Assembly: GCA_011911785.1 (NCBI GenBank)
Contig: GCA_011911785.1_4084.1
Length of the DNA: 64,000 bases
Reading direction: 5' to 3' (one strand)
Source of the DNA: a phage
Part shown: positions 1,298 through 20,652 of the stretch, piece after piece
How the letters are laid out: every line of letters begins with the position of its first letter
How positions within the stretch are numbered: the first letter of the stretch is position 1
Notes under the pieces: model-generated
The model's input: the letters and a program-made list of their open reading frames with translations, nothing else
What the model was told of the DNA's origin: nothing
Databases searched by the model: none
Position numbers and translations under genes: made by a program

Positions 1298-1375
1298 GGT
1301 TGACTTCGGTCAGCCATTTTGCTATTATATATTCATTGAGAGATAGCTCACTAGCCCACCGGGTGCGGAAGTGTA
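1298..1375 (+). promoter_or_regulatory. repeat copy 1 of 4: intrinsic-terminator hairpin fused to sigma70 promoter (TTGACT-N17-TATTAT) plus conserved leader
   Basis: hairpin TGGTTGAC-ttcg-GTCAGCCA then T-run; -35 inside 5' arm of stem; leader block ...AGCCCACCGGGTGC... Confidence 0.6.
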
Positions 1376-1409
1376 AATAAAATATATCAATCTAATAAGG
1401 AGTACTACA

Positions 1410-1592
1410 ATGTTTAAACCAATCGAACTAGCGGCATCACATATCATCGGTAAACCTGCCGTTATCATACGCCAGGAAGACGTAAACCTATGGATCATCT
1501 ATGTAGACATGAAAGAGATTGAGCGTCACGATGATTTCAAATCAGCGTCAATTGCGTATGATATGGCGTTATGTGAGTATCAAAGAGATTAA
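1410..1592 (+). CDS. hypothetical protein (60 aa)
   Basis: RBS AAGGAG upstream of ATG. Confidence 0.55.
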   Translation: MFKPIELAASHIIGKPAVIIRQEDVNLWIIYVDMKEIERHDDFKSASIAYDMALCEYQRD

Positions 1593-1612
1593 AAGTATTT
1601 TGCAAAAAGTAC

Positions 1613-1671
1613 TTGCATTGTACTTAGAATCAAGTATAATGTTTTACATAGCAAGGGGAAACGGTTTCCCC
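1613..1671 (+). promoter_or_regulatory. sigma70-like promoter (TTGCAT-N16-TATAAT) plus 5'UTR stem-loop (PeSL-like)
   Basis: AAGTAC-TTGCATT-GTACTT inverted repeat around -35; TATAAT 1635-1640; hairpin GGGGAAACggTTTCCCC 1655-1671. Confidence 0.6.
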
Positions 1672-1691
1672 TGGTAATAAGGAAACGAATC

Positions 1692-2033
1692 ATGACTATC
1701 TCAATTGCTCAATCTAACTTTGAAAACGAAATCATCGCCCAGGCACTGCGTTTAAATGATGGTCGGGCCGAAATTAATTACGGTTTCAATTCAGGCGGTT
1801 GTGAAAACTATCAGTACTTTGTAACGGCTGATGGCGGTGTCCTGGGAATCAATACAGTTATTGTAAACATTCAGAAAATTAATTTCAATGATCCAGACGA
1901 TAGCCAGTTTTACATTGTCGGCGTAGACGTGAACTATGAGGATGACTCACTAACTGATGATTGCACTGGTGAGAAGTTAGAAAGTGCATACGGTGAAGAT
2001 GATTATCAGTCCGGTCCAGAAGATTTCGAATAA
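1692..2033 (+). CDS. hypothetical acidic protein (113 aa)
   Basis: RBS AAGGAAA; D/E-rich C-terminal half. Confidence 0.6.
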   Translation: MTISIAQSNFENEIIAQALRLNDGRAEINYGFNSGGCENYQYFVTADGGVLGINTVIVNIQKINFNDPDDSQFYIVGVDVNYEDDSLTDDCTGEKLESAYGEDDYQSGPEDFE

Positions 2034-2047
2034 TATTAAAAAATAGT

Positions 2048-2106
2048 TTGACAATAGATTATAGTACTGTATAATAGTTTACATCAAGGGGAGAATAGTT
2101 CTCCCC
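2048..2106 (+). promoter_or_regulatory. sigma70-like promoter (TTGACA-N16-TATAAT) plus 5'UTR stem-loop (PeSL-like)
   Basis: TTGACA 2048-2053, AGTACTG-TATAAT 2070-2075, hairpin GGGGAGAAtagTTCTCCCC 2088-2106. Confidence 0.65.
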
Positions 2107-2128
2107 ACTAACAGAGAGAGAAAACAAA

Positions 2129-2341
2129 ATGGCTAATATCCGGTCGAAATTGAAAAATGCAAAACAAGTTTTATTTTCAGACCATGAATACTTTAATAAA
2201 GATATTACAGGAGTTACAAGTATCAAGGAAGTAAAAGAAAAAACTGGCGTTTTGTGTGATGTGCGATTGGTTGGAACATTTGGGAATAACGTGCTATATC
2301 GATGCGGTGATTATAACTTTACATTAACCATTATCGATTAA
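2129..2341 (+). CDS. hypothetical protein (70 aa)
   Basis: ORF downstream of promoter cassette; RBS GAGAGAGA. Confidence 0.55.
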   Translation: MANIRSKLKNAKQVLFSDHEYFNKDITGVTSIKEVKEKTGVLCDVRLVGTFGNNVLYRCGDYNFTLTIID

Positions 2342-2360
2342 AAATATTATCACAGTACTA

Positions 2361-2389
2361 TTGACAAAGATTGATAGTACTGGCATAAT
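2361..2389 (+). promoter_or_regulatory. sigma70-like promoter (TTGACA-N17-CATAAT)
   Basis: TTGACA 2361-2366, AGTACTG, CATAAT 2384-2389. Confidence 0.5.
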
Positions 2390-2423
2390 AGATTTTATCA
2401 ACTACACTACTAAGGAATTAAAA

Positions 2424-2603
2424 ATGGCTATCATCGCAAAAACTGAAATCGTTGGTCTGGATTCTATCATCATGACGTTTGAAGATCAAAAAGGGATGTA
2501 TGTAGTTTCCTATGGTGATTATGTTCGGGAGTATGAAACGGTAGACGAAGCCTTTGAAAGTTACATTCGCCAGGTGAATAAAGCATACGACGACTACCGC
2601 TAA
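2424..2603 (+). CDS. hypothetical small protein (59 aa)
   Basis: track ORF 2361-2603 trimmed: its first ATG lies inside the promoter; RBS AAGGAA precedes ATG 2424. Confidence 0.5.
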   Translation: MAIIAKTEIVGLDSIIMTFEDQKGMYVVSYGDYVREYETVDEAFESYIRQVNKAYDDYR

Positions 2604-2630
2604 AATATATTACCAGTACTATTAAAGATA

Positions 2631-2658
2631 TTGACATAGTTTGATAGTACTGTATAAT
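2631..2658 (+). promoter_or_regulatory. sigma70-like promoter (TTGACA-N16-TATAAT)
   Basis: TTGACA 2631-2636, AGTACTG-TATAAT 2653-2658. Confidence 0.55.
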
Positions 2659-2702
2659 AAGTTTTATCAACAGTAGTTAACTTAACCTAAGAGAGAAAGA
2701 AA

Positions 2703-2846
2703 ATGATCGCACTGGATTCATTCATCGAAGCAGTACTGGCAAAAACTGGCGAAGATCTGACCGCAGAACAATACGCAATGATCGAACAATGCCAGCAAGA
2801 CGGTAAATCGGTGAAAGATACTGTTAAGATTATCCGCAAGATGTAA
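2703..2846 (+). CDS. hypothetical small protein (47 aa)
   Basis: RBS AGAGAGAAAG; below track cutoff; followed by intrinsic terminator. Confidence 0.45.
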   Translation: MIALDSFIEAVLAKTGEDLTAEQYAMIEQCQQDGKSVKDTVKIIRKM

Positions 2847-2852
2847 GATTAT

Positions 2853-2883
2853 AGCCCACTGGTTAACGCTGGTGGGCTTTTTA
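2853..2883 (+). terminator. rho-independent terminator
   Basis: stem AGCCCAC/GTGGGCT followed by TTTTT. Confidence 0.65.
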
Positions 2884-2967
2884 GTATATACCTATCCGAT
2901 AGTACTACAAAATAGATTAGCTCGTTAGAATGCGTTTGAGAGCGTTTAAATAAGTACTAAAAAGTAA

Positions 2968-2995
2968 TTGACAGTACTGAAAGATAGTATATAAT
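2968..2995 (+). promoter_or_regulatory. sigma70-like promoter (TTGACA-N16-TATAAT)
   Basis: TTGACA 2968-2973 then AGTACTG; TATAAT 2990-2995. Confidence 0.55.
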
Positions 2996-3024
2996 ATTTT
3001 ATATCTTAACTGAGGATAGAAATC

Positions 3025-3381
3025 ATGGGAATACAACACATCACGCGTACTACTGACAATGGTGAGATCACTGGTTATCAAGTACAGGGAAAAGCGTCAC
3101 AATTGCAGTACTGGTTTGAAAAACGTGGATTGATTGCACCGGATCTTGATTATGACCGTGTAGCGTTTATTGATTCTCTTTATGTTGATTCTGCTAGTCG
3201 GGGTAATGGTGAAGGCACGGAATTGATGAACGCCTTTATTGATGCCGCCGATGATTCAGATTGTATCATTTTAGAATGCGATACGGGAGAAGATAACGCC
3301 TTTAATCTTAAAGAATGGTACGAAGGTTTCGGATTCGAAGTACTGATCGATAGTGAATATCCTATCATGATTTTATCGTAG
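3025..3381 (+). CDS. putative GNAT-family N-acetyltransferase (118 aa)
   Basis: RBS GAGGA; segment VAFIDSLYVDSASRGNGEGTELM resembles GNAT motif A (R-G-x-G-x-G). Confidence 0.5.
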   Translation: MGIQHITRTTDNGEITGYQVQGKASQLQYWFEKRGLIAPDLDYDRVAFIDSLYVDSASRGNGEGTELMNAFIDAADDSDCIILECDTGEDNAFNLKEWYEGFGFEVLIDSEYPIMILS

Positions 3382-3394
3382 TACTAAAAAGTAA

Positions 3395-3451
3395 TTGACA
3401 GTACTGATAGATAGTGTATAATGTTTTACATGAAGGGGAAACATCTTCCCC
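3395..3451 (+). promoter_or_regulatory. sigma70-like promoter plus 5'UTR stem-loop (PeSL-like)
   Basis: TTGACA 3395-3400, TATAAT 3417-3422, hairpin GGGGAAacatcTTCCCC. Confidence 0.6.
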
Positions 3452-3463
3452 TACTAAGAGGAA

Positions 3464-3658
3464 ATGAAAATGGAAAACTTATCAAGTATTTTAGTACAAG
3501 ATGAATACGGCAATCCAGGAAGTGCTATCATTGTTCGGGGTAATAAGGCAACGTTTGTTATTGCTGGTGGACCTGTACAGCGTAGCATTAAAAACAATGC
3601 CGTTACTATTAATAATGTACGCTATCGCTTAGATAAAGAATTGATTCACAAACTGTAA
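3464..3658 (+). CDS. hypothetical protein (64 aa)
   Basis: RBS AAGAGGA upstream. Confidence 0.55.
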   Translation: MKMENLSSILVQDEYGNPGSAIIVRGNKATFVIAGGPVQRSIKNNAVTINNVRYRLDKELIHKL

Positions 3659-3685
3659 TATTAATTTAATAGAGGATAACAATAA

Positions 3686-4009
3686 ATGTACATTCATACT
3701 ACTATCACAAAGGAAGTCCGTTGCCAGTTCGAAAGTATTCCGGGCGTATGTTTCATCACTGGTACGTTTTCCCCTGGTGATCGTGATAATCCAGTACTGT
3801 TACAATTACGCCATCCATCATGGGATAAAGCATTTGATCTACCGTTGAATGAATTCGCAACTACTGCTGAAAAGTACATTAAAAATATTCGCGAGAATGA
3901 TCGACTATTCATTAATGCTTTTAGTGATTCCGCGTTAAGCGAGATCCACGGCGTATTGGTTGCAATCATGGAATCTATGCAGAAAACTAAATTCAAACAA
4001 GGTGAATAA
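3686..4009 (+). CDS. hypothetical protein (107 aa)
   Basis: RBS GAGGA upstream of ATG. Confidence 0.6.
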   Translation: MYIHTTITKEVRCQFESIPGVCFITGTFSPGDRDNPVLLQLRHPSWDKAFDLPLNEFATTAEKYIKNIRENDRLFINAFSDSALSEIHGVLVAIMESMQKTKFKQGE

Positions 4010-4015
4010 AAACTA

Positions 4016-4075
4016 TTGACAATGCAATCCAGTACTGTATAATAAGTTACATGAAGGGGAGAAATGATTCTCCCC
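4016..4075 (+). promoter_or_regulatory. sigma70-like promoter plus 5'UTR stem-loop (PeSL-like)
   Basis: TTGACA 4016-4021, AGTACTG-TATAAT 4038-4043, hairpin GGGGAGAAatgaTTCTCCCC 4056-4075. Confidence 0.65.
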
Positions 4076-4093
4076 AGTACTGAGGAAAGAAAA

Positions 4094-4306
4094 ATGCAAG
4101 GTCAACTAATCGTTCGTAAATGGTCTGATACTAACGAAAAACCGTGGGATGTACAATACATCGCCCCCAATGGTGAATCCAGATATCAACCAGGTGTAAC
4201 GCATAGTACTGAGCAATTCGCCGCCGCACACCGTGAACGCCTGTTACAATCCATGCAGCAAGGCTTCGGTGAAAAATTCATCCAAGATCATTGGCTGAAA
4301 GATTAA
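4094..4306 (+). CDS. hypothetical protein (70 aa)
   Basis: track ORF 4064-4306 trimmed: first ATG is inside the UTR hairpin; RBS GAGGAAAG precedes ATG 4094. Confidence 0.55.
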   Translation: MQGQLIVRKWSDTNEKPWDVQYIAPNGESRYQPGVTHSTEQFAAAHRERLLQSMQQGFGEKFIQDHWLKD

Positions 4307-4314
4307 AAAAGTAC

Positions 4315-4371
4315 TTGTGAAGTACTTAGAATCAAGTATAATGTTTTACATAGAGAGGGGAATAGTTCCCC
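4315..4371 (+). promoter_or_regulatory. sigma70-like promoter (TTGTGA-N16-TATAAT) plus 5'UTR stem-loop (PeSL-like)
   Basis: TATAAT 4337-4342, hairpin GGGGAAtagTTCCCC 4357-4371. Confidence 0.55.
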
Positions 4372-4393
4372 TCCTAACAAAAAGGAAAGTAAC

Positions 4394-4567
4394 ATGATCC
4401 AAGTAGAATTGACAGTACTGAAAGATCTGTTTTATCGGATGGGTACTACTGGCGAATATCCGAAAGGTGATACCGCAAAACTTTACGTATCGCTGGATGT
4501 ATGGCAACGCGAACAATTAGCAACGGCCTGGCGTAAAGGCAAAGCAGATCGCGAGGTGCAAGCATGA
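4394..4567 (+). CDS. hypothetical small protein (57 aa)
   Basis: RBS AAGGAAAG; below track cutoff. Confidence 0.45.
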   Translation: MIQVELTVLKDLFYRMGTTGEYPKGDTAKLYVSLDVWQREQLATAWRKGKADREVQA

Positions 4568-4713
4568 AAGAATACTTATTCGAAGTTACATTTTTGGGGC
4601 AAGGTATGCACCAACTAGTAAGATCCAGCGGTTATAGTCTTAACCAGGCATGGAATAACTTAAAGAAAATGTACCCTAACGCTATCACATATCGCAACCC
4701 AAAAGAAGTTTAA
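4564..4713 (+). CDS. hypothetical small protein (49 aa)
   Basis: ATGA stop/start overlap with previous ORF. Confidence 0.4.
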   Translation: MKEYLFEVTFLGQGMHQLVRSSGYSLNQAWNNLKKMYPNAITYRNPKEV

Positions 4714-4727
4714 AAATAATTGAAAAA

Positions 4728-4806
4728 GGGATTGACTCCGGTCAGTCCCTTTGCTATTATATACGCATAGAAACAAATCAGCCCACAGGGTGCATAAATG
4801 TATCTA
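4728..4806 (+). promoter_or_regulatory. repeat copy 2 of 4: terminator hairpin fused to promoter (TTGACT-N17-TATTAT) plus conserved leader
   Basis: hairpin GGGATTGAC-tccg-GTCAGTCCC then TTT; TATTAT 4755-4760. Confidence 0.65.
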
Positions 4807-4859
4807 TTATATGCTGGTGGACGTATTATCTAGTACTGAAAACTATTATAAAAAAGTAC

Positions 4860-4926
4860 TTGCATTGTACTTAGAATCAAGTATAATGTTTTACATCAGG
4901 ACGGGGAATGAAACAAGTAACCCCGT
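4860..4926 (+). promoter_or_regulatory. sigma70-like promoter (TTGCAT-N16-TATAAT) plus stem-loop
   Basis: TATAAT 4882-4887; hairpin ACGGGG...CCCCGT 4901-4926. Confidence 0.5.
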
Positions 4927-4975
4927 TAAGTAGTCCAGGAGTAAGACATAAGAAAACCTCCCCTGATAAAATAGT

Positions 4976-5003
4976 TTGACAATAGAAAGTAAACGAGTAT
5001 AAT
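4976..5003 (+). promoter_or_regulatory. sigma70-like promoter (TTGACA-N16-TATAAT)
   Basis: TTGACA 4976-4981, TATAAT 4998-5003. Confidence 0.55.
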
Positions 5004-5035
5004 ACTTACATCAACCACTGATAAGGAAACATAAA

Positions 5036-5311
5036 ATGCGGATTCTACTGACAGCTAACGAAATCGAACAAGTACTGACTACTAACCTGCAAGACTGGAA
5101 ACGTGAAGCAGATATCCAGGCGGTTCAATGGCTTAACGATAAGTTAACGCCGGATGACTTAAGCAAGATTGTAGATCCTCAATTCTATGAAGATATTCAC
5201 GACACCGCGTTAAGCGTCGAGGATGTACTTGATAAGCACTACATTGATATTGATTTGCAGGTTTACGGTCGTAAAAACTTTATCACTATTCACGACATTT
5301 ACAATAATTAA
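5036..5311 (+). CDS. hypothetical protein (91 aa)
   Basis: RBS AAGGAAA upstream of ATG. Confidence 0.6.
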   Translation: MRILLTANEIEQVLTTNLQDWKREADIQAVQWLNDKLTPDDLSKIVDPQFYEDIHDTALSVEDVLDKHYIDIDLQVYGRKNFITIHDIYNN

Positions 5312-5314
5312 GTA

Positions 5315-5375
5315 TTGACAAAGTATCTTAGTACTGTATAATAGTTTACATCAAGTGAGGGGAATGGTTCCCCTC
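5315..5375 (+). promoter_or_regulatory. sigma70-like promoter plus 5'UTR stem-loop (PeSL-like)
   Basis: TTGACA 5315-5320, TATAAT 5337-5342, hairpin GAGGGGAAtggTTCCCCTC; near-identical to cassette at 5585. Confidence 0.65.
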
Positions 5376-5398
5376 CTAACTAAAAGAGAGAAATAAAA

Positions 5399-5581
5399 AT
5401 GGCTAAGTGCACTATCTGTAAGAAAGAAATCGTATTAGTTCCAAGTGCCCGTGAACGTGCCGCTCGGTTCGGTGGCAAAGCGTCAGACTATACAAAAATG
5501 TTTACTACCCATGCAGATTGCCAGGTAGCAAAACGTTCACAAGAAAGCGTAGAATTAATGCGTAAACTTTCCAGAAAATAA
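5399..5581 (+). CDS. hypothetical protein (60 aa), possible Zn-ribbon (CxxC...HxxC)
   Basis: RBS AGAGAGA; CTICKK...HADC. Confidence 0.5.
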   Translation: MAKCTICKKEIVLVPSARERAARFGGKASDYTKMFTTHADCQVAKRSQESVELMRKLSRK

Positions 5582-5584
5582 GTA

Positions 5585-5646
5585 TTGACAAAGTATCTTA
5601 GTACTGTATAATAGTTTACATCGAGTGAGGGGAAACGGTTCCCCTC
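5585..5646 (+). promoter_or_regulatory. sigma70-like promoter plus 5'UTR stem-loop (PeSL-like)
   Basis: TTGACA 5585-5590, TATAAT 5607-5612, hairpin GAGGGGAAacggTTCCCCTC. Confidence 0.65.
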
Positions 5647-5669
5647 CTAACAAAGAGAGAGAAATAAAA

Positions 5670-5993
5670 ATGGCTATGATCCTCACCCAGAAAGTAGAAC
5701 TGAAAATTGTAACCTCCTTTGACATTAAAGTTAATCGGTGGACTGATTCACACGGCAATACTTACCACTCTTGCTACGTGTCTGCTTTGATTGGTGATCG
5801 CTGGGAGGATTTAGGACATGAAACCTTTACTTACGGTTACGGCACACAAGGCGAATACACAGGCTTGGAGATCATTAAAGAAACCGTTATAGGTTTCAAC
5901 CCGAAAGAAAAAGTTATTCATCAAATAGAAAAAGAGATCAACAAAGAAATAACAGTTCGATACTACGATGTAAAACGTAAGAAAGACATGTAA
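5670..5993 (+). CDS. hypothetical protein (107 aa)
   Basis: track ORF 5625-5993 trimmed to ATG after RBS GAGAGAGA; upstream part is promoter/hairpin. Confidence 0.55.
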   Translation: MAMILTQKVELKIVTSFDIKVNRWTDSHGNTYHSCYVSALIGDRWEDLGHETFTYGYGTQGEYTGLEIIKETVIGFNPKEKVIHQIEKEINKEITVRYYDVKRKKDM

Positions 5994-6015
5994 TAGAATC
6001 CATTTAAAGTACTAT

Positions 6016-6044
6016 TTGACATTGCCCAGATAGTACTTTATAAT
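6016..6044 (+). promoter_or_regulatory. sigma70-like promoter (TTGACA-N17-TATAAT)
   Basis: TTGACA 6016-6021, TATAAT 6039-6044. Confidence 0.5.
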
Positions 6045-6092
6045 AGACTCTAGCTTGTAGTACTAATTAACTTAACTAATAGGATGTATACC

Positions 6093-6488
6093 ATGATTAC
6101 TAAATTCTACGCTACCCGTGAAGCTGCCCGTATTGTTGCACGCGAGGAAGGAGCAGCATTTAAAGACATGGGCACGACCGCACCGAAAGGCCAACGCTGG
6201 GCCGTACAGTTCAAAGAAATCTCTGATATTGTGCATTCACCTGAGCCAGTACTAACAGCAGCAGAACTAAAACGAGCGGATATGCTGGCGGCAGTACTTA
6301 ACGCACAAGATGAGTTTATCGCTGGTTCTGATATCAAAGTACAGGTAAATGCTAATGCATGGACTCACGCGGATCACCTGGCTAACCTGAAGCGTCCAAG
6401 TGAACTGGTTCGCAACCAAAAAGAGATCCGTCATGATCGTAAGGGTAATCGTGTAACAGTATACAGTAAACGCCGCCAGGTTATCTAA
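6093..6488 (+). CDS. hypothetical protein (131 aa)
   Basis: RBS AGGA then ATG 6093 (track starts 6084); followed by terminator. Confidence 0.6.
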   Translation: MITKFYATREAARIVAREEGAAFKDMGTTAPKGQRWAVQFKEISDIVHSPEPVLTAAELKRADMLAAVLNAQDEFIAGSDIKVQVNANAWTHADHLANLKRPSELVRNQKEIRHDRKGNRVTVYSKRRQVI

Positions 6489-6510
6489 TAACTTGCAGTA
6501 CTAACAACAC

Positions 6511-6536
6511 GGCGGGATCAGTTCCCGCCTTTTTTA
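6511..6536 (+). terminator. rho-independent terminator
   Basis: stem GGCGGGA/TCCCGCC followed by TTTTTT. Confidence 0.7.
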
Positions 6537-6550
6537 TAGGATAAACTAAA

Positions 6551-6805
6551 ATGATTAAGGTTCAACTATCAAAAGATAATATCTTGCGGGTACACTATAA
6601 AGCACCACAGAGAATCATCACAAAGGCCGTACAGCTTGCTAATGAGTTTATTAATGGTAATCTATTGCCCAGGAAGTTAAGCAACGGCAAACTGCGTGTA
6701 ATCGATGTAGACACTAACAACAGAATAGTAATCGAGAATACAGGAAAGATAAACCTATATGAACACCAACAATATAATAAGAAAATAAAACTAATATCAC
6801 GTTGA
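6551..6805 (+). CDS. hypothetical protein (84 aa)
   Basis: RBS AGGA upstream of ATG. Confidence 0.5.
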   Translation: MIKVQLSKDNILRVHYKAPQRIITKAVQLANEFINGNLLPRKLSNGKLRVIDVDTNNRIVIENTGKINLYEHQQYNKKIKLISR

Positions 6806-6830
6806 CAGTACTCAATTGTTTTAGTACTAT
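6802..6830 (+). promoter_or_regulatory. sigma70-like promoter (TTGACA-N17-TACTAT)
   Basis: duplicated cassette, also at 7078. Confidence 0.45.
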
Positions 6831-6858
6831 GTATCTATACCAACACGGGAGAAACAAA

Positions 6859-7077
6859 ATGAAATTATCTAAAATCGAAAAGAAAACTATTGATGAAGCA
6901 GTTAAGCACGGTTATACCTTTCGTAATGATTCACATTTTACCAATTTTCAACAAGGGTATCGTACTATTAAAAAACTTATTGACAAAGGTTTATTAGTTG
7001 AAGTCAATAACGGTAACGGTATCGAGTATCAACCAACACAAGACGCATTATCTTTAAAGAAATATGCAATTATCTAA
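6859..7077 (+). CDS. hypothetical protein (72 aa)
   Basis: track ORF 6802 trimmed to ATG after RBS GGGAGAAA. Confidence 0.5.
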   Translation: MKLSKIEKKTIDEAVKHGYTFRNDSHFTNFQQGYRTIKKLIDKGLLVEVNNGNGIEYQPTQDALSLKKYAII

Positions 7078-7106
7078 TTGACAGTACTCAATTGTTTTAG
7101 TACTAT
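7078..7106 (+). promoter_or_regulatory. sigma70-like promoter (TTGACA-N17-TACTAT)
   Basis: near-identical copy of cassette at 6802. Confidence 0.45.
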
Positions 7107-7142
7107 ATGTACATACCAACACGGAATAACTGGAGAAACAAA

Positions 7143-7370
7143 ATGATTAATATCTTAGAACGCATCAAAGAAACTACTACGCTGGTGGATCTACTCAATG
7201 TACTGACTTTTAAAGTAACTCGGTTTAGTACTCCTGAATTTATCAACCTCATTGATAGTAAAGGTGAATACCGCATCACTATTGAAAATGGTCGTGCTAA
7301 TGTATTCAGTACTAAATCAGGTAAAACCGCAATTCATTCAGTAATTGCAAATAAAACTGTTGCAATCTAA
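7143..7370 (+). CDS. hypothetical protein (75 aa)
   Basis: track ORF 7107 trimmed to ATG after RBS GGAGAAA. Confidence 0.5.
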   Translation: MINILERIKETTTLVDLLNVLTFKVTRFSTPEFINLIDSKGEYRITIENGRANVFSTKSGKTAIHSVIANKTVAI

Positions 7371-7378
7371 TTAGTACT

Positions 7379-7438
7379 AACATATAATAGTCACATCAAG
7401 GCAGGGAATACCTCCCTGCTATCTTAAAGAGTAAATGC
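7379..7438 (+). promoter_or_regulatory. sigma70-like promoter (TTGCAA-N17-TATAAT) plus 5'UTR stem-loop
   Basis: TATAAT 7402-7407; hairpin GCAGGGA...TCCCTGC. Confidence 0.5.
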
Positions 7439-7439
7439 A

Positions 7440-8024
7440 ATGCGTAATTATACTAAATTCATCCGTACACTGGCAGAAATGGAAACTAATAAAGAGATCC
7501 TTACAGCTTGTCGGTTGGCTGGTCTGGAGATCATCGGGGCCGGATCATCCCGTATCGTATTCGCTTTAAATGATCGGTTAGTGATTAAGGTCGCTAATTG
7601 TGACGCTGGCGTAGAACAAAATGAAACAGAATGTAAGGTATGGAATTTTTTAGATTATGACCGCCCTCACCTTAAACAGTACTTTGCTAAGGTGCATATG
7701 CATTTAAGCGATCCTGATAATATGTTTATTGTTATGGATCGTTTGAGTACTGCAAGCAAAGGCAGTGTAAAGCACGTTAACGCTTGCAATGAATTAAAGT
7801 ACAATGTCAAACGTAACACTATTGAACGCCAACACCATTTCGCTGATGCACTACAACACGTTGATGATACCTTATCAACACTAACGATAAGAGATATCAG
7901 AAAGCAGAACATAGGCCAAGATCGCAATGGCCTGATTAAAGTACTTGATTACGGTTTAACCCGCAATATCTGGAATCAGTACTATAAACAACGCGACGTA
8001 AAAGCCGTAACTATAACACGATAA
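7440..8024 (+). CDS. putative protein kinase-like protein (194 aa)
   Basis: Gly-loop IGAGSSRIVF, VIKV lysine, catalytic-loop-like IRDIRKQNI (compare HRDLKPENI), DFG-like LDYG. Confidence 0.5.
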   Translation: MRNYTKFIRTLAEMETNKEILTACRLAGLEIIGAGSSRIVFALNDRLVIKVANCDAGVEQNETECKVWNFLDYDRPHLKQYFAKVHMHLSDPDNMFIVMDRLSTASKGSVKHVNACNELKYNVKRNTIERQHHFADALQHVDDTLSTLTIRDIRKQNIGQDRNGLIKVLDYGLTRNIWNQYYKQRDVKAVTITR

Positions 8025-8038
8025 AAAAGATTAAAAAA

Positions 8039-8120
8039 GGGATTGACTCCAGTCAGTCCCTTTGCTATTATATAGTCATTGAGAGATAACTCACTGACCC
8101 ATAGGGTGCATAAGTGTATC
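8039..8120 (+). promoter_or_regulatory. repeat copy 3 of 4: terminator hairpin fused to promoter plus conserved leader
   Basis: hairpin GGGATTGAC-tcca-GTCAGTCCC then TTT; TATTAT 8066-8071. Confidence 0.65.
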
Positions 8121-8166
8121 TATAATATAAGTATTGTCAGTACTGAAAACTATTTTTAAAAAGTAC

Positions 8167-8229
8167 TTGCATTGTACTTAGATTCAAGTATAATGTTTTA
8201 CATAGAGAGGGGGAAATAGTTCTCCCTCA
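8167..8229 (+). promoter_or_regulatory. sigma70-like promoter (TTGCAT-N16-TATAAT) plus 5'UTR stem-loop (PeSL-like)
   Basis: AAGTAC-TTGCATT-GTACTT; TATAAT 8189-8194; G-rich hairpin. Confidence 0.6.
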
Positions 8230-8248
8230 AAGAATAAGGAATAAAATC

Positions 8249-8470
8249 ATGACTACAATGACTTGCATTTACGCTTCCAATCTTCTGAATGATGCGGCCT
8301 TTAATGTTGATTCAGAATATCAATGTTATCGGGATGAAAATAAAAAAGTTTTTGTAGTTGATAATAATGGTTTCCATATTGAATTACAATCCGGCTTCAC
8401 TGGTGTTGATGGTAAATCAGTATGGGGCGTTCAGGATGATAAAGGCACATATCATTTTAAACGTAATTAA
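8249..8470 (+). CDS. hypothetical protein (73 aa)
   Basis: RBS AAGGAA upstream. Confidence 0.55.
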   Translation: MTTMTCIYASNLLNDAAFNVDSEYQCYRDENKKVFVVDNNGFHIELQSGFTGVDGKSVWGVQDDKGTYHFKRN

Positions 8471-8473
8471 GTA

Positions 8474-8532
8474 TTGACAAAGTATATCAGTACTGTATAA
8501 TAGTTTACATCAAGGGGAGAATAGTTCTCCCC
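8474..8532 (+). promoter_or_regulatory. sigma70-like promoter plus 5'UTR stem-loop (PeSL-like)
   Basis: TTGACA 8474-8479, AGTACTG-TATAAT 8496-8501, hairpin GGGGAGAAtagTTCTCCCC 8514-8532. Confidence 0.65.
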
Positions 8533-8553
8533 GATACTAAAAGGAATAAAATC

Positions 8554-8961
8554 ATGACTACTACTAATCAAGCTCGGTCCATCACCAACGATAAAAATCA
8601 TGCTGCAATGGTCGCTGGTTACATTGAAGCTATGCAATTCAGTACTGTACACAATGAGAACGGCGACTACCTGGAAGATTATGAATTATCAGAGCAAGCC
8701 CATCAAGCGGCAGTGATTGCATGTTCTCGTTTCCTTGAGAAGTTTAGTAATGAAATGGAAGCAGTACAAAAACACCATAATCCTGATTATACTTATAGTC
8801 ATGCAGGTCATGATCTCTTTCTTACCCGCGAAGGTCACGGTACTGGCTTTTGGGATCGTGATATCGGTCACTATGACGATGTATTCACTAAGTACTGCGA
8901 AGAAATCAACGTTTGCGATCCCTATGTAGGCGATGATAATCTAATCTATATGGGCGAATAA
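8554..8961 (+). CDS. hypothetical protein (135 aa)
   Basis: RBS AAGGAA; His/Gly-rich motif HAGHDLFLTREGHGTGFWD. Confidence 0.6.
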   Translation: MTTTNQARSITNDKNHAAMVAGYIEAMQFSTVHNENGDYLEDYELSEQAHQAAVIACSRFLEKFSNEMEAVQKHHNPDYTYSHAGHDLFLTREGHGTGFWDRDIGHYDDVFTKYCEEINVCDPYVGDDNLIYMGE

Positions 8962-8967
8962 AAGTAT

Positions 8968-9026
8968 TTGACAAAGCATATCAGTACTGTATAATAGTTT
9001 ACATCAAGGGGAGAATAGTTCTCCCC
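8968..9026 (+). promoter_or_regulatory. sigma70-like promoter plus 5'UTR stem-loop (PeSL-like)
   Basis: near-identical copy of cassette at 8474; TTGACA 8968-8973, TATAAT 8990-8995. Confidence 0.65.
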
Positions 9027-9048
9027 ACTACTAAAAGGAAACAAAATT

Positions 9049-9321
9049 ATGTCTAGCTACTCCGCTACTATGATCATCAAAGATATGAACGGTAATCCTA
9101 CTTCCGCTGGTGGATCATTTGGAAACATTAACTTAGATGGTCGGTTATCAATGGAATCAGCCATCAATGCAGCGAAAGAAGTTTTTAAGAATGAATGTAC
9201 TGTAAGCAAGCTGGATTATATGGGCTTCGCTATCGAGAAAACTAAACGTTTTGTGGACTACAAAAATCCACTGATGATTGATACTAACCTGAAAGCTAAC
9301 GAAGTGGAATACTTATTATGA
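9049..9321 (+). CDS. hypothetical protein (90 aa)
   Basis: RBS AAGGAAA upstream. Confidence 0.55.
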   Translation: MSSYSATMIIKDMNGNPTSAGGSFGNINLDGRLSMESAINAAKEVFKNECTVSKLDYMGFAIEKTKRFVDYKNPLMIDTNLKANEVEYLL

Positions 9322-9509
9322 CAGTTGATGAAGTTAAAAAAGTACTGGCAGTACTACGCTATCATAATCATTGTAAGGTTAAGAATGATCCTGATTATGT
9401 TGATTCATCCCTGGAGGAAGACACCTTAAACGCGATAAGCCATATGCAAACATTAGCAAAGCGTATGACCGAAAAGAATAGGCCGGACTATATCGGAAAT
9501 AAAATTTAA
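9318..9509 (+). CDS. hypothetical protein (63 aa)
   Basis: ATGA stop/start overlap with previous ORF. Confidence 0.5.
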   Translation: MTVDEVKKVLAVLRYHNHCKVKNDPDYVDSSLEEDTLNAISHMQTLAKRMTEKNRPDYIGNKI

Positions 9510-9516
9510 AAAGTAC

Positions 9517-9578
9517 TTGCATTGTAGTTAGATTAACGTATAATGTTTTATATCGAGAGGGGGAAATGGTTTCCCCTC
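9517..9578 (+). promoter_or_regulatory. sigma70-like promoter (TTGCAT-N16-TATAAT) plus 5'UTR stem-loop
   Basis: TATAAT 9539-9544; hairpin GAGGGGGAAAtggTTTCCCCTC. Confidence 0.6.
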
Positions 9579-9596
9579 AAGTCCAGGAGATACACC

Positions 9597-9863
9597 ATGA
9601 ACACTATCGAAATCACTATCAATGCTCACGTATACGACAACGTAGTACTGCAAACTACTATGACCGCTAACGATACCAGTACTTTGCGGAATACTGTTAT
9701 AAGTGCTGTATGTGCCGCTATCGGTGATGTATCCCTGGAAAACGCAGAACACATCAATAACGGTTTCACTATGTGCAAACGTGATAACGCAAAACATATC
9801 ATCGTAGAAGGTTACGGCGGTGTAGAATATAATCTTTATATGAAAAAAGTACTTGCATCGTAA
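9597..9863 (+). CDS. hypothetical protein (88 aa)
   Basis: track ORF 9543 trimmed to ATG after RBS AGGAGA. Confidence 0.55.
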   Translation: MNTIEITINAHVYDNVVLQTTMTANDTSTLRNTVISAVCAAIGDVSLENAEHINNGFTMCKRDNAKHIIVEGYGGVEYNLYMKKVLAS

Positions 9864-9909
9864 GTAAAACAAAGTATAATGTTTTGCATAGGGGGAGATA
9901 TCCTCCCCC
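9853..9909 (+). promoter_or_regulatory. sigma70-like promoter (TTGCAT-N16-TATAAT) plus 5'UTR stem-loop
   Basis: TATAAT 9875-9880; hairpin GGGGGAGatatCCTCCCCC. Confidence 0.6.
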
Positions 9910-9928
9910 ACTAATAAGGAGTACTACG

Positions 9929-10153
9929 ATGGCTAATCATGATGAACTGATTCGGGAAGTAGCTAACCTGGCGGCAGAAAAGAAATCATTTGATTCTATC
10001 TATAACACCGCTCACCGTGATTCAGTACTGGCATGTAATCAGGATCAAAAAGATGAACTGATCGCAACCTATCATGAAGCGTGGAAGTATTACCGTCAAT
10101 GGGAGAAAGAAGAAAAAGCATCAACCATAAGAGGATTAAATAATCTAGTATAA
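9929..10153 (+). CDS. hypothetical protein (74 aa)
   Basis: track ORF 9884 trimmed to ATG after RBS AAGGAG. Confidence 0.55.
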   Translation: MANHDELIREVANLAAEKKSFDSIYNTAHRDSVLACNQDQKDELIATYHEAWKYYRQWEKEEKASTIRGLNNLV

Positions 10154-10160
10154 CAATAAA

Positions 10161-10189
10161 AGGGGATGATAATATCCCCTTAATAATTT
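10161..10189 (+). terminator. putative intrinsic terminator
   Basis: stem AGGGGAT/ATCCCCT followed by an A/T-rich tract. Confidence 0.45.
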
Positions 10190-10205
10190 CTATAATAGGT
10201 TAACA

Positions 10206-10472
10206 ATGAAAAAGAAAACAACATATCGCTATAATAAAAATTATCAATCCGTTGTATTAGATCACTCTATGCTCCCGCTCGTTGTCCCTGCCGTTGGTGT
10301 AGTCTATCAATCCATATACTGGTCAAGGAAACAACAAAAGTACTTAAAAGGCCCAATAGCACGCTATGAGGGTAATGGTGTATGGTCCGATCCGTTACAT
10401 CCAATCACTACGCGTTATATTGAATATTTTCCTTATTGTGACTACATTGAAATACATCCTAAATTTAATTGA
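10206..10472 (+). CDS. hypothetical protein (88 aa), paralog of 10553-10810
   Basis: shared motif GNGxWxDPxxP...DYIE with the next ORF. Confidence 0.55.
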   Translation: MKKKTTYRYNKNYQSVVLDHSMLPLVVPAVGVVYQSIYWSRKQQKYLKGPIARYEGNGVWSDPLHPITTRYIEYFPYCDYIEIHPKFN

Positions 10473-10477
10473 TAGTA

Positions 10478-10531
10478 TTGACAGTACTAACTGATAGTGT
10501 ATAATGTTTTGCATAGGGGGAATACTCCCCC
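10478..10531 (+). promoter_or_regulatory. sigma70-like promoter plus 5'UTR stem-loop
   Basis: TTGACA 10478-10483, TATAAT 10500-10505, hairpin GGGGG-aatact-CCCCC. Confidence 0.6.
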
Positions 10532-10552
10532 AATATTAAAAGGGGAAACATC

Positions 10553-10810
10553 ATGGAACAATTCACACAATATCGGGTAAATCCTCAAGCTATGGCCTAC
10601 GTAGAAGACCATAAAACGTTACCAGTACTGCAACCAGTTAAAGGCCGTATCTATCGTGGCCTTGCATGGAATACGGCCCAGGATGGATATAAAACCGTTG
10701 CCGTGGGGATGTATTGCGGTAATGGTGAATGGTTTGATCCAAATAATCCGGTAGCTATTGACAGTACTGAAAAAATGAAATGGGCCGACTATATCGAGGA
10801 TATCTCATAA
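10553..10810 (+). CDS. hypothetical protein (85 aa), paralog of 10206-10472
   Basis: RBS AAGGGGAAA; shared motif CGNGEWFDPNNP. Confidence 0.55.
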   Translation: MEQFTQYRVNPQAMAYVEDHKTLPVLQPVKGRIYRGLAWNTAQDGYKTVAVGMYCGNGEWFDPNNPVAIDSTEKMKWADYIEDIS

Positions 10811-10816
10811 AACTAT

Positions 10817-10877
10817 TTGACAGTACTATCATATAGTGTATAATGTTTTACATAGAGCGGGGGAATAGTTCTCCCGC
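10817..10877 (+). promoter_or_regulatory. sigma70-like promoter plus 5'UTR stem-loop
   Basis: TTGACA 10817-10822, TATAAT 10839-10844, hairpin GCGGGGGAAtagTTCTCCCGC. Confidence 0.6.
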
Positions 10878-10899
10878 CAATAGTTTGGAGTAAAACATT

Positions 10900-11100
10900 A
10901 TGTCAATCGCTAACGAAATGATCGCAGTACTGAAAGAAGCTAAAGCCAACCTGATCGACGTAAAGATCCAGGAACTACAATCCGGCTTAATCGGCTGTAC
11001 TTGTACCGCTGGTGGGGCGACAGATTATCGTGAATTCGAATCACTCGAATCGATGGTTCGGTATCTTACAATGATCGTGGAAGATTGGAAGATCATCTAA
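10900..11100 (+). CDS. hypothetical protein (66 aa)
   Basis: RBS GGAG upstream. Confidence 0.55.
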   Translation: MSIANEMIAVLKEAKANLIDVKIQELQSGLIGCTCTAGGATDYREFESLESMVRYLTMIVEDWKII

Positions 11101-11118
11101 CAAAAAAGAATAAAAAAA

Positions 11119-11196
11119 GGGATTGACTCCGGTCAGTCCCTTTGCTATTATATACGCATAGACAAAAACTAGCCCACAGGGTGCATAAGTGTATCC
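11119..11196 (+). promoter_or_regulatory. repeat copy 4 of 4: terminator hairpin fused to promoter plus conserved leader
   Basis: hairpin GGGATTGAC-tccg-GTCAGTCCC then TTT; TATTAT 11146-11151. Confidence 0.65.
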
Positions 11197-11264
11197 AAAA
11201 TATATAGTTAATAACGGTGAGTAACTATCTGCTGGTGGAGTGAAAACTATTAATAAAAAAAGTA

Positions 11265-11293
11265 TTGACAAAGTATATCAGTACTGCAATAAT
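11265..11293 (+). promoter_or_regulatory. sigma70-like promoter (TTGACA-N17-AATAAT)
   Basis: TTGACA 11265-11270, AGTACTG, weaker -10. Confidence 0.45.
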
Positions 11294-11347: not shown

Positions 11348-11680
11348 ATGAGTACTTCAATCGCCATCGTTAATGCTTTCATCCGTACCAATGTTTCTTC
11401 TGTATTCATCGACGGACTGGATCGGGAAGTAGAATACTCAATCATTATCGCACAGACTGCAAACGGTGCTCGGTATATCCTCAATGATAGCGAAGCAAAT
11501 CACTACTACTACACTAAAGCTACTGGCTTTAAACGCATCGATGCGGACGTAGTATACGCTAAGATGAATAAGCTGGTAGACAAGATTAACGCTAAAGGTA
11601 CTATCGATTTACAGTACTGGACCGAAACCGATCCAGAATATGGATCTCACCGCTACCTGAATCCAGGTATTAAAATGTAA
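11348..11680 (+). CDS. hypothetical protein (110 aa)
   Basis: track ORF 11240 trimmed to ATG after RBS AGGAGA. Confidence 0.55.
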   Translation: MSTSIAIVNAFIRTNVSSVFIDGLDREVEYSIIIAQTANGARYILNDSEANHYYYTKATGFKRIDADVVYAKMNKLVDKINAKGTIDLQYWTETDPEYGSHRYLNPGIKM

Positions 11681-11687
11681 AAAGTAC

Positions 11688-11749
11688 TTGCATAGTACTT
11701 AGTAAAGTGTATAATGTTTTACATAGAGAGGGGGAAATGGTTCTCCCTC
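11688..11749 (+). promoter_or_regulatory. sigma70-like promoter (TTGCAT-N16-TATAAT) plus 5'UTR stem-loop
   Basis: TATAAT 11710-11715; G-rich hairpin 11728-11749. Confidence 0.6.
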
Positions 11750-12449: not shown

Positions 12450-12492
12450 TGAATTAAATGATTCAGTACTAAAACTATTAGTCAGAAAATAA

Positions 12493-12527
12493 TCGGTGCA
12501 TTTTAAAAATGCATCGTTTTTTATTTT
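12493..12527 (+). terminator. rho-independent terminator
   Basis: palindrome TGCATTTT-A-AAAATGCA followed by TTTTTT. Confidence 0.6.
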
Positions 12528-12684
12528 AACCAGTACACTATAACGTATGAAATAGTTTCGACCTGTGATTATATTCTTAGGCAACTAGGGGCAGGTAATG
12601 CTTAGCTGCGTGTATAGGGGTTCATAGGTGGGACAAAATTGTTTCGTATGCTACAATCATAACAAATAACATAAGGAGAAACCA

Positions 12685-13107
12685 ATGATTAAATTTAAAG
12701 TTGATTATAATTCTAATATACAAATGGATGCAAATGTTCAATTTCCAAAAAACTTACTAAAAATGTCATTCAGTTATCATATACCATCGAATTCTATGTT
12801 GATTGATTGTGTTAATAAGAATGAAGATGTTATGCGTTCAAGTGTTTATTTCATAAGTGATGATTCTGAAATATTTAACATTGAATATTCAGATTATAAA
12901 GGTCAATTTGTTTTAGATACACCCAGTAACCAATATAAATTCAACATTCTTGATGTATCAAATACAGTAATTAGTTCGTTTGATGTGGGTAATTTATCTG
13001 TTCCACATGACAACGGTGTATCTGGGGATTTATATGAAAACACCATGCCATATACTAAACAAGAAAATATGAGTATTAACGATATATGTAATTATTTGAA
13101 AAAATAA
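12685..13107 (+). CDS. hypothetical protein (140 aa)
   Basis: RBS AAGGAGA upstream; AT-rich composition like the downstream arrays. Confidence 0.6.
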   Translation: MIKFKVDYNSNIQMDANVQFPKNLLKMSFSYHIPSNSMLIDCVNKNEDVMRSSVYFISDDSEIFNIEYSDYKGQFVLDTPSNQYKFNILDVSNTVISSFDVGNLSVPHDNGVSGDLYENTMPYTKQENMSINDICNYLKK

Positions 13108-13114
13108 GTTCTAC

Positions 13115-13143
13115 TTGACATCATGCCTCGTATGGGGTATGAT
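13115..13143 (+). promoter_or_regulatory. sigma70-like promoter (TTGACA-N17-TATGAT) heading the small-protein array
   Basis: TTGACA 13115-13120, TATGAT 13138-13143. Confidence 0.55.
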
Positions 13144-13177
13144 GTTTTTTCATATATGAACCTATGGAATTTGCCCT

Positions 13178-13375
13178 ATGCGTATTTTAACCCAAGAAGA
13201 GCATCACGAAAGACTTATCAATAACATGGCTATGATAATGTATAAGTCACATAAACGTGGTAATGCCTATAAACGTGAATTAGTTATGGAACTATTCTTA
13301 GGAACTAACTTACAAAATGAATATGTTAAACTATATGTAAAAGAGTTATGTTTAGAGATAAATGGTAAACTATGA
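13178..13375 (+). CDS. LGTNYQ-family small protein (65 aa)
   Basis: motif FLGTNLQNEYV; first array member. Confidence 0.6.
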   Translation: MRILTQEEHHERLINNMAMIMYKSHKRGNAYKRELVMELFLGTNLQNEYVKLYVKELCLEINGKL

Positions 13376-13572
13376 AAATGCGTACATTAACTCAAGATGA
13401 ATATCATCATATACTACGTAAAAACACGGCAAGGATTTACCAAAGCAATGTGCACTTAGAAAGAGTTGAGTTGTACCTTTTGATTACGATGGGAACAAAC
13501 TATCAGGAAGTGTGGATAACTCACTATTTGGAATCTTTGAAAGCTGACATACGAGCGAGGTGCAAACATTGA
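13372..13572 (+). CDS. LGTNYQ-family small protein (66 aa)
   Basis: motif TMGTNYQEVWI; ATGA overlap. Confidence 0.6.
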   Translation: MKMRTLTQDEYHHILRKNTARIYQSNVHLERVELYLLITMGTNYQEVWITHYLESLKADIRARCKH

Positions 13573-13778
13573 AAATCATAACACAGACACAAGCATTTGG
13601 TCGTATATTGAAATACCTTGATGACATGATAGATATACATAGTGACCTCCCTAAAACTGTAATCGACGCCAAAAGAGCAGAATATCGCATGATGGCTGTA
13701 CTGGACACAAACTTTCAGGAAGAGTATGTCAATGATTGGATTGGATTTTTAATTGAAGATATAAAGAGTAAACTATGA
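13569..13778 (+). CDS. LGTNYQ-family small protein (about 69 aa), probable TTG start
   Basis: motif VLDTNFQEEYV; RBS GAGG 9 nt upstream of TTG overlapping the previous stop (TTGA). Confidence 0.5.
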   Translation: MKIITQTQAFGRILKYLDDMIDIHSDLPKTVIDAKRAEYRMMAVLDTNFQEEYVNDWIGFLIEDIKSKL

Positions 13779-18958: not shown

Positions 18959-18967
18959 GAGATTAAT

Positions 18968-20275: not shown

Positions 20276-20286
20276 GGAAACAAAAT

Positions 20287-20646: not shown

Positions 20647-20652
20647 TAATAT

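Follow-up and report, generated by a model that had tools for sequence, protein, structure and literature searches.

Predicted stop-restart cassettes with a structured leader RNA motif in the terminal repeat of a Rak2-like jumbo coliphage

We describe here a repeated intergenic element in a 64-kb stretch of DNA (hereafter the window, by which we mean the whole stretch at its full length) that belongs to an Asteriusvirus, a Rak2/121Q/PBECO4-like jumbo coliphage. The element occurs in four cassettes, in each of which the same ∼35 bases are predicted to encode both the stop and the restart of transcription. An intrinsic terminator hairpin provides, with its 5′ arm, the −35 hexamer of a σ70-type promoter, P1, and the predicted start site of P1 opens a structured RNA motif of ∼48 nt. 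The hairpin, the promoter, their overlap, the structure of the RNA and the fixed link between promoter and motif can all be read from the sequence and from comparison with relatives. We consider the chances somewhat better than even that the element is a stop-restart cassette in which P1 has the RNA module itself as its product.

The hairpin GGGATTGAC-tccg-GTCAGTCCC is exact at 4728–4749 and 11119–11140 and has one change at 8039–8060; no match to a hairpin of 22 nt was expected by chance in the window. The original prediction had assigned the same hairpin to copy 1, where we found a variant stem and loop, GTGGTTGAC-ttcg-GTCAGCCAT, starting at 1296. Its other proposal, that TTGACT, a 17-nt spacer and TATTAT overlap the hairpin, was borne out in all four copies, each of which also has the TG of an extended −10 (TGcTATTAT), as expected of a σ70 promoter. 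The hairpins and −10 hexamers are located as follows.

1296–1317, + strand: terminator hairpin of copy 1, 5 nt past the stop codon of the open reading frame (ORF) 1153–1290; −35 TTGACT at 1300–1305.
1323–1328, + strand: −10 TATTAT of copy 1, with TGc just before it; predicted +1 at ∼1335.
4728–4749, + strand: terminator hairpin of copy 2, with an AAA/TTT extension, 14 nt past the stop of ORF 4564–4713; −35 TTGACT at 4732–4737.
4755–4760, + strand: −10 TATTAT of copy 2, with TGc before it and a 17-nt spacer; predicted +1 at ∼4767.
8039–8060, + strand: terminator hairpin of copy 3, loop tccA, 14 nt past the stop of ORF 7440–8024; −35 at 8043–8048.
8066–8071, + strand: −10 TATTAT of copy 3; predicted +1 at ∼8078.
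11119–11140, + strand: terminator hairpin of copy 4, 18 nt past the stop of ORF 10900–11100; −35 at 11123–11128.
11146–11151, + strand: −10 TATTAT of copy 4; predicted +1 at ∼11158.

The hairpins have the sequence features of intrinsic terminators, namely a G+C-containing stem (9–12 bp) with a 4-nt loop of the UNCG type and a U-rich tract directly after it (UUUGCUAUUAU), placed in the window copies 5–18 nt downstream of stop codons. They were called terminators by ARNold in the annotation of phage G17, and also by a terminator scan of the window. The promoter is built into the same bases. The T of TTGACT opens the loop, the 17-nt spacer is made up of the three remaining loop bases, the 9-nt 3′ arm and TTTGC, and the A/T-rich −10 prolongs the U-rich tail.

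Next, we compared the homologous regions gathered from G17, CBB, fHe-Yen9-03, Muenster, Munch, pEa_SNUABM_12, Hallingskeid and RaK2. Among the 49 gene-sense copies from nine phage regions, ∼38 have a hairpin with TTGAC at the end of its 5′ arm and a folding energy of −7.5 to −19.5 kcal/mol. Different outer stems are seen among the copies (GGGG/CCCC, GTAC/GTAC, AGGC/GCCT and GTGG/CCAT), with covariation across genera, and the loop is mostly UUCG or UCCG with a C–G closing pair. The 3′ arm often reads GUYRG, giving G·U pairs. Because the stems use G·U pairs, the sense RNA is more stable than the reverse-complement RNA, by 3–9 kcal/mol in every hairpin-bearing copy (−12.5 versus −6.4 kcal/mol for copy 1 and −19.5 versus −13.2 kcal/mol for copy 2). 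No such hairpin was observed at the antisense copies of the promoter in the relatives' regions. Therefore, the hairpin appears to have been selected as an RNA structure of the sense strand, i.e. as a terminator. Its overlap with the promoter is kept by relatives in at least five groups, and we take the fusion of the terminator hairpin with the −35 to be an old, maintained design. The predicted stop-restart architecture of the cassette is well supported by these comparisons.

The leader starts at the predicted +1 and is itself a structured motif of ∼48 nt, composed of helix 1, helix 2 and a conserved tail. Helix 2 can be written (A/G)CCC-N3-4-GGGU. The tail, whose sequence is conserved, reads UGC-N5-UGUAUCUAU. 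We searched for the motif by a regex scan and then by a covariance model, R1, built from a structure-aware seed of 20 sequences. With R1, 219 kb of terminal-repeat DNA from related phages gave 68 copies, which lie on both strands. Exactly four are in the window, with E values from 1e-13 to 2e-5:

1334–1381, + strand: leader motif of copy 1, helix 1 TGAG-agatag-CTCA, helix 2 GCCC-acc-GGGT; 53.9 bits, E 1e-10.
4766–4808, + strand: leader motif of copy 2, without helix 1, with an unpaired A-rich AGAAACAAA, helix 2 GCCC-aca-GGGT and tail UGCAUAAAUGUAUCUAU; 33.9 bits, E 1.6e-5.
8077–8124, + strand: leader motif of copy 3, helix 1 TGAG-agataa-CTCA, helix 2 ACCC-ata-GGGT and the full tail; 65.9 bits, E 1e-13.
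11157–11199, + strand: leader motif of copy 4, of the subtype without helix 1; 36.7 bits, E 3e-6.

The leader of copy 3 has the top score among these, and the tail of copy 1 is cut off by an inserted gene cassette (1376–1590). Over 101 nt, copies 2 and 4 are 89% alike, and copies 2 and 3 are 63% identical; the distinct 5′ half of copy 3 is common to copy 1. The conserved leader of ∼40 nt in the original prediction had been quoted as 38 nt that are exact in copy 2. No other copy comes within 3 mismatches of them, but all four fit one covariance model. Similarly, the element had been regarded as a four-copy repeat; four copies are indeed present in the window, but they belong to a clade-wide family of RNA motifs.

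Helix 1 has 3–5 bp and at least 15 different stem sequences, closed by purine-rich loops such as GAGAAA, GCGAAA, AGAUAA and AGAACAA. Changes on both sides were observed at all 4 of its pairs (88 cells), and 94.8% of the cells are paired. None of 500 shuffles reached the score, and slid controls gave 0.01–0.05 compared with 0.39. The covariation was repeated on 55 distinct metagenome and IMG/VR sequences from outside the set used for model building. Helix 2 is nearly invariant, with two CCU/AGG compensations, and its loop varies in sequence as well as in length (3 or 4 nt), which argues for an RNA rather than a duplex DNA site. In the subtype without helix 1, seen in window copies 2 and 4 and also in other genera, the A-rich stretch stays unpaired. 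RNAalifold on a plain MAFFT alignment returned helix 2 only. Helix 1 was missed because it is out of register in that alignment, and the structure-aware seed was used instead.

Several other features were considered for the motif and rejected. In the minimum-energy fold of copy 3, the helix 1 loop (AGAUA) pairs with the tail (UAUCU) in a pseudoknot; this was discarded, given an invariant tail and loops that differ between copies (GAGAAA, GCGAAA, AGAACAA). By inspection, a closing helix (5′ AUAG with 3′ CUAU) and a small intra-tail hairpin have inconsistent registers among the copies, and a resemblance to a DnaA box or to the RfaH ops element fails across the motif variants. A −10-like pause element in the tail was also dropped, the T at position 6 being missing in many copies (inspection of the alignment, uncounted). 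Rfam 15 gave no match at the gathering level in the 64 kb, and permissive scans of two regions gave only chance-level matches; an ARAGORN run found no tRNA. Literature searches turned up no account of the element, and it is not described in the papers on CBB, fEgEco12, Sharanji and PA5oct or in a jumbo-phage review. We conclude that the leader is an undescribed, clade-wide structured RNA motif common to enterobacterial Rak2-like jumbo phages.

The motif is tightly linked to P1. A promoter lies immediately upstream in 64 of the 68 copies; the model start is shifted in the other four. Of the 68 family members, 78% reach a score of at least 10 of 12, which 1% of random positions do; 51 have a spacer of 17 nt and 47 have the TG. 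In 53 of the 64 copies, the end of the −10 is exactly 5 nt ahead of model position 1, so that the A of 'cAU' falls on the expected +1, and transcription is predicted to start there. In the annotation of the Yersinia phage fHe-Yen9-03, these −35 and −10 hexamers had been marked, together with a second promoter downstream of them.

A further variant had been listed at position 38606:

38606–38644, + strand: variant outside the terminal repeat, hairpin AGCCAG-(ggtattgact)-CTGGCT plus a T-run; TTGACT at 38616–38621, 17-nt spacer, TATTAT at 38639–38644.

Here TTGACT, the 17-nt spacer and TATTAT do overlap a hairpin with a T-run, but the hairpin is a different one, with the −35 in its loop, and the covariance model found no leader motif. 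The ATG of a gene follows at 38673. Another promoter-like site, at 13115–13146 (TTGACA, 17-nt spacer, TATGAT), has its −35 and −10 in opposite arms of a 13-bp hairpin followed by TTTTTC. The site is close to the right boundary predicted for the terminal repeat and represents a terminator/promoter overlap of different design.

The first 12 kb of the window are ∼91% identical to Asteriusvirus genomes, as a mosaic of blocks (121Q, PBECO4, G17, fEgEco12 and others). The matched genomes are of 350–380 kb. They contain four elements each, or eight where the record has the ∼21-kb direct terminal repeat in both its copies; therefore, all four window copies lie inside this repeat. The direct terminal repeat of fEgEco12 was confirmed experimentally (PMC13070987), and a terminal repeat is annotated in the CBB and Muenster records. 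The region is immediate-early and dense in small plus-strand ORFs, with one terminator per 1.5–2 kb. BLAST confined the element to Rak2-like jumbo phages of E. coli, Salmonella, Klebsiella, Cronobacter, Pectobacterium, Erwinia, Yersinia and Serratia. This phage group is distantly related to T4, and the genera compared have only about a third of their proteins in common. Exact-pattern scans of viral genomes gave matches only in genomes of 345–378 kb, and metagenome contigs matching the pattern carry several copies each. The same scan of 185,579 bacterial and archaeal genomes yielded 7 scattered matches, none in Enterobacterales, where ∼4 were expected by chance according to a hand estimate (not a tool output). 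A host origin or mimicry of the motif was rejected on this basis.

We also analyzed what follows the motif. Behind the sense copies, there is an AT-rich linker of 15–45 nt, then a second promoter, P2, of a repeated family that we call Type A (AAAAAGTACTTGCAt, spacer, TATAAT), a 5′ untranslated region (UTR) and a gene; the stretch from the motif to P2 contains no terminator. In the window, P2 was located behind three of the copies:

4860–4887, + strand: P2 of copy 2, AAAAAAGTAC-TTGCAT, 16-nt spacer, TATAAT; a Chi site at 4813–4820 lies in the linker before it.
8167–8194, + strand: P2 of copy 3, TTGCAT, 16-nt spacer, TATAAT, followed by a 5′-UTR hairpin, a ribosome-binding site and the ATG at 8249.
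11265–11293, + strand: P2 of copy 4, TTGACA, 17-nt spacer, AATAAT with TG; gene start at ∼11348, Chi site at 11231–11238 in the linker.

At copy 1, the gene 1410–1592 comes directly after the leader. Relative to G17, which retains the ancestral second promoter at this position, it is an insertion between the leader and the second promoter. For copies 2–4, the claim that no ORF directly follows the leader was upheld: no ORF between the leader and the next promoter is conserved among them, which rules out a conserved small leader ORF, and the mechanical ORF 4751–4933 is specific to copy 2 and has its start inside the promoter.

The antisense copies in the relatives are organized differently. Ten of them run into a bidirectional intrinsic terminator within 10–40 nt, forming promoter–motif–terminator units of ∼90–100 nt that are free of ORFs (for example, 205–315 (−) in region L001 and 6760–6856 (−) in region L004). 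These ten look like small-RNA genes, with a predicted promoter of their own, no ORF, a structured body and their own terminator. The last of these is lacking in the window, where no terminator was found between the leader and the next promoter. Hence, the short non-coding transcript suggested originally gains from the covarying structure and from the stand-alone units of the relatives, but its 3′ end in the window is not provided by a terminator before P2. Sixteen copies form convergent pairs, 68–90 nt apart, near the left genome end. Altogether, 26 of the 68 copies are without coding cargo. As these cargo-less copies exist, and as the genes behind the sense copies have their own promoter, we read the RNA module as the product of P1 in its own right.

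Between the convergent promoter–motif pairs near the left end of the relatives there is a Fur-box-like palindrome, e.g. GATAATGATAATCATTTAC, with 2 mismatches to the consensus (L005 (Munch) at 6682, 1591 and 24; L008 (RaK2) at 149; L006 at ∼17088); this site is absent from the window even with up to 3 mismatches allowed. After P2 of copy 2, a further ORF-free stretch of ∼80 nt (4895–4975) shows, by inspection, a possible ATCAGG/CCTGAT closure and an internal hairpin ACGGGG...CCCCGT, and it may be another non-coding transcript. A third consensus promoter (TTGACA at 4976, TATAAT ending at 5003) and a gene at 5036 follow it.

The Type A family has at least 14 copies between 820 and 11780 of the window, before almost every small early ORF (for example, 827–893, 1605–1671, 2040–2106, 8159–8225 and 11680–11746). 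Its layout is an A-rich upstream element, TTGACA or TTGCAT, a 16–17-nt spacer, TATAAT, GTTTTACAT, a 5′-terminal hairpin (GGGGGAAAtaGTTCTCCC) and a ribosome-binding site. Gene-cassette insertions and deletions relative to G17 (2950–3384, 1376–1590, 7190–7419 and 10116–10536) end at repeated promoter cassettes, and ORF 3025–3381 lies between 52-nt direct repeats that are 92% identical (2953–3004 and 3380–3431). Their bounding by promoter repeats fits the modular shuffling known from promoter-early stem-loop (PeSL) elements.

PeSLs of T4-type phages are composite terminator/promoter cassettes (Arbiol et al. 2010, PMC2839356; Comeau et al. 2014, PMC4122927) and are the closest known kind of element. 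Both are small intergenic elements, repeated among tiny early ORFans, that insulate neighbouring gene cassettes, and in both a stem-loop terminator for the upstream transcription is combined with a strong σ70-like early promoter for the next gene. However, the PeSL has an AT-rich stretch that lies upstream of the −35 with the stem-loop as a further component, and an overlap is not described (PMC2839356). In the present element, the 5′ arm of the stem supplies the −35, the −10 belongs to the U-rich tail, and a structured RNA of ∼48 nt at +1 and a second promoter come after. Of the cassette breakpoints relative to G17, one (1375) is at motif copy 1 and the others are at Type A promoter repeats.

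We propose that the cassette would work in the following way. As RNA, the hairpin with its UNCG-type loop and U-rich tail would end transcription of the upstream small early genes. As DNA, the same bases would form the host σ70 promoter P1, with the −35 TTGAC(T) from the 5′ arm, a 17-bp spacer and an extended −10, TGnTATTAT. P1 would start at the A of 'cAU', 7 nt past the −10, and would at once transcribe the ∼48-nt module, consisting of helix 1 with its purine-rich loop (or the unpaired A-rich stretch), helix 2 and the tail. The module would act as a multi-copy, factor-binding small RNA or 5′ RNA tag from the first minutes of infection, and the downstream gene would be expressed from the separate P2, 70–100 bp further on. 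Here, we infer that termination and initiation actually occur at the cassette, that the RNA of the sense copies would end either by processing in the AU-rich linker or by a block at P2, and that the RNA has a binding partner. It is conceivable that the module represents a novel type of phage RNA, with the transcription machinery of the host, or else a host protein of defence or regulation, as its target. It would then be either a factor-independent, put-like modifier of E. coli RNA polymerase or a multi-copy decoy, transcribed within minutes of the onset of infection from as many as a dozen promoters of the duplicated genome ends. We hold this more specific proposal only tentatively and would sooner expect it to fail than to hold.

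Some of the data weigh against a stop-restart cassette with an RNA product of its own. The U-tract right after the stem is short in the window (UUUGC), and therefore termination may be partial. As the motif has no terminator after it in the window, the transcript from P1 could be nothing more than an extended 5′ UTR belonging to the next gene. Helix 1 is missing from window copies 2 and 4. Covariance-model alignments are fitted to the structure, which favours the pairing counts; this concern is lessened by the ungapped seed alignment and by the independent set of 55 sequences. An alternative helix, GGGUGC/GUAUCU, is 92% pair-compatible and mutually exclusive with helix 2; it is backed mainly by one-sided transitions, and it makes the fold given here for the 3′ half of the motif a provisional one. 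The complement of the tail, as a base-pairing target, is not enriched in the window. Finally, one observation counts on both sides. RNA-seq in a distant relative, PA5oct, found two highly transcribed non-coding RNAs, ncRNA001 and ncRNA002, in the terminal repeat (PMC7318152). Like our units, these come from intergenic DNA that lacks ORFs, within a related jumbo phage's long terminal repeat, but they are of 236 and 451 nt, and the covariance model found no copy of the motif in the PA5oct repeat, including these RNAs. The PA5oct RNAs are therefore a precedent and not a homologue.

The put RNAs of phage HK022 are, as an analogy, the nearest in function. These RNAs, ∼70 nt in length and with two stem-loops, are encoded right behind the early promoter PL and act without any protein factor (PMC9378689). 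If the module were a put-like RNA acting in cis, the polymerase from P1 would become resistant to pausing and termination and would read through to the delayed-early genes, while P2-type transcripts would stop at the next terminator. The motif indeed always stands at the start of an early promoter, with two stem-loops and conserved unpaired bases, in a terminator-rich region; putL and putR, too, are two-stem-loop RNAs directly downstream of an early promoter of the host polymerase in a terminator-containing region (PMC9378689). However, HK022 has two copies per genome, whereas the present motif, shorter at ∼48 nt, occurs 4–12 times per terminal repeat and on both strands, and the likeness is only one of architecture. 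The ten antisense copies meet a well-formed terminator almost at once and 16 copies are convergent; in both settings, read-through could yield nothing but antisense transcription or collisions. Copies without cargo and copies in convergent pairs speak against a role in antitermination alone, and we consider the put-like explanation unlikely. The λ-type nut site also has a hairpin with a variable stem and a purine-rich, GNRA-like loop near an early promoter. In the present element, the loop sequence varies within one genome and some copies are without the hairpin; a λ nut was excluded because boxA (GCTCTT) is absent from all four cassettes. We find it no more probable than the put-like role that the cassettes are tandem promoters behind a terminator, whose leader is a generic 5′ stem-loop protecting the P1 mRNA from 5′-end-dependent decay and is conserved through gene conversion among the repeats. 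P2 transcripts also begin with a 5′ hairpin, no terminator separates the motif from the gene in the window, and the thermodynamic z-scores of the window transcripts are unremarkable, all of which would suit such a leader. On the other hand, CCC..GGGUGC..UGUAUCUAU is conserved across genera that have only about a third of their proteins in common, and also between non-orthologous copies on both strands, which goes far beyond what a protective hairpin needs, and the units without cargo do not fit.

Two further explanations were considered. The element could act at the level of the DNA, as an operator for a phage or host protein at +25 to +55 of P1, or as a patch of homology or site for recombination that shuffles cassettes in the manner of PeSLs. 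The convergent pairs are imperfect palindromes of ∼200 bp with the Fur-box-like sequence at their centre, and the cassette insertions and deletions relative to G17 end at repeated regulatory elements, one of them (breakpoint 1375) at the 3′ end of motif copy 1. But most of these breakpoints lie at the Type A promoter family instead, and the covariation of helix 1, the length change in the helix 2 loop and the strand-specific G·U hairpins are signatures of RNA, making a DNA-level role improbable. A transcription-primed replication origin like ori(uvsY) and ori(34) of T4, in which an R-loop from P1 primes the leading strand in the terminal repeat, appears very improbable indeed. The order of promoter, conserved segment and AT-rich stretch, in a phage group distantly related to T4, would suit an origin; 4–12 copies per repeat on both strands would not, an R-loop needs no covariation of the RNA type, and no sign of an unwinding element was obtained.

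Other repeats and signals were noticed in the window. Chi sites (GCTGGTGG) are at 2868, 3563, 4813, 7181, 9106, 11008 and 11231 on the + strand and at 50990 on the − strand. They are strongly enriched and co-oriented in the terminal-repeat part, with 7 in 8.4 kb versus 0.36 expected in the whole 64 kb; two are in the linkers after copies 2 and 4, and one is in the 3′ arm of the terminator 2853–2878. The sense bias was seen in every enterobacterial relative fetched (4–8 sense versus 0–2 antisense sites per 11–26 kb); the Pseudomonas phage PA5oct has 0 in 40 kb. So oriented, the sites would be recognised by a RecBCD that comes in at the genome's right-hand end. There are 231 occurrences of the palindrome AGTACT in the window, against an expectation of 18.8 ± 4.3, in coding and non-coding DNA, including promoter contexts and the linker after the leader, but it is wholly absent from ∼12470–16569 and 18595–25386. 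By inspection (uncounted), the relatives look rich in GTAC. A factor-binding site and a DNA-modification signature are both possibilities for AGTACT. We also noted units ∼215 nt apart that share GGAACAAACTATCAA (13467–17697), probably tandem paralogous small genes, and three copies of ∼100–170 nt, ∼460 nt apart, at 26342–27433.

Rak2-like jumbo phages (Asteriusvirus, Alcyoneusvirus, Mimasvirus and Eneladusvirus) are under development for therapy, and their early programme is annotated almost wholly as 'hypothetical protein'. The present analysis gives a testable early-transcription map of the terminal repeat, with its terminators, two host-type promoter classes and predicted start sites. The cassette is also a natural case of maximal overlap between terminator and promoter, which could be useful as a compact insulator part. 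The undescribed, strongly covarying RNA motif, multi-copy, clade-restricted and fused to its promoter, makes a candidate for a part in host takeover, either as a small RNA or as an RNA that modifies the polymerase. Should it turn out to be put-like, factor-independent antitermination by RNA would extend beyond a few lambdoid phages.

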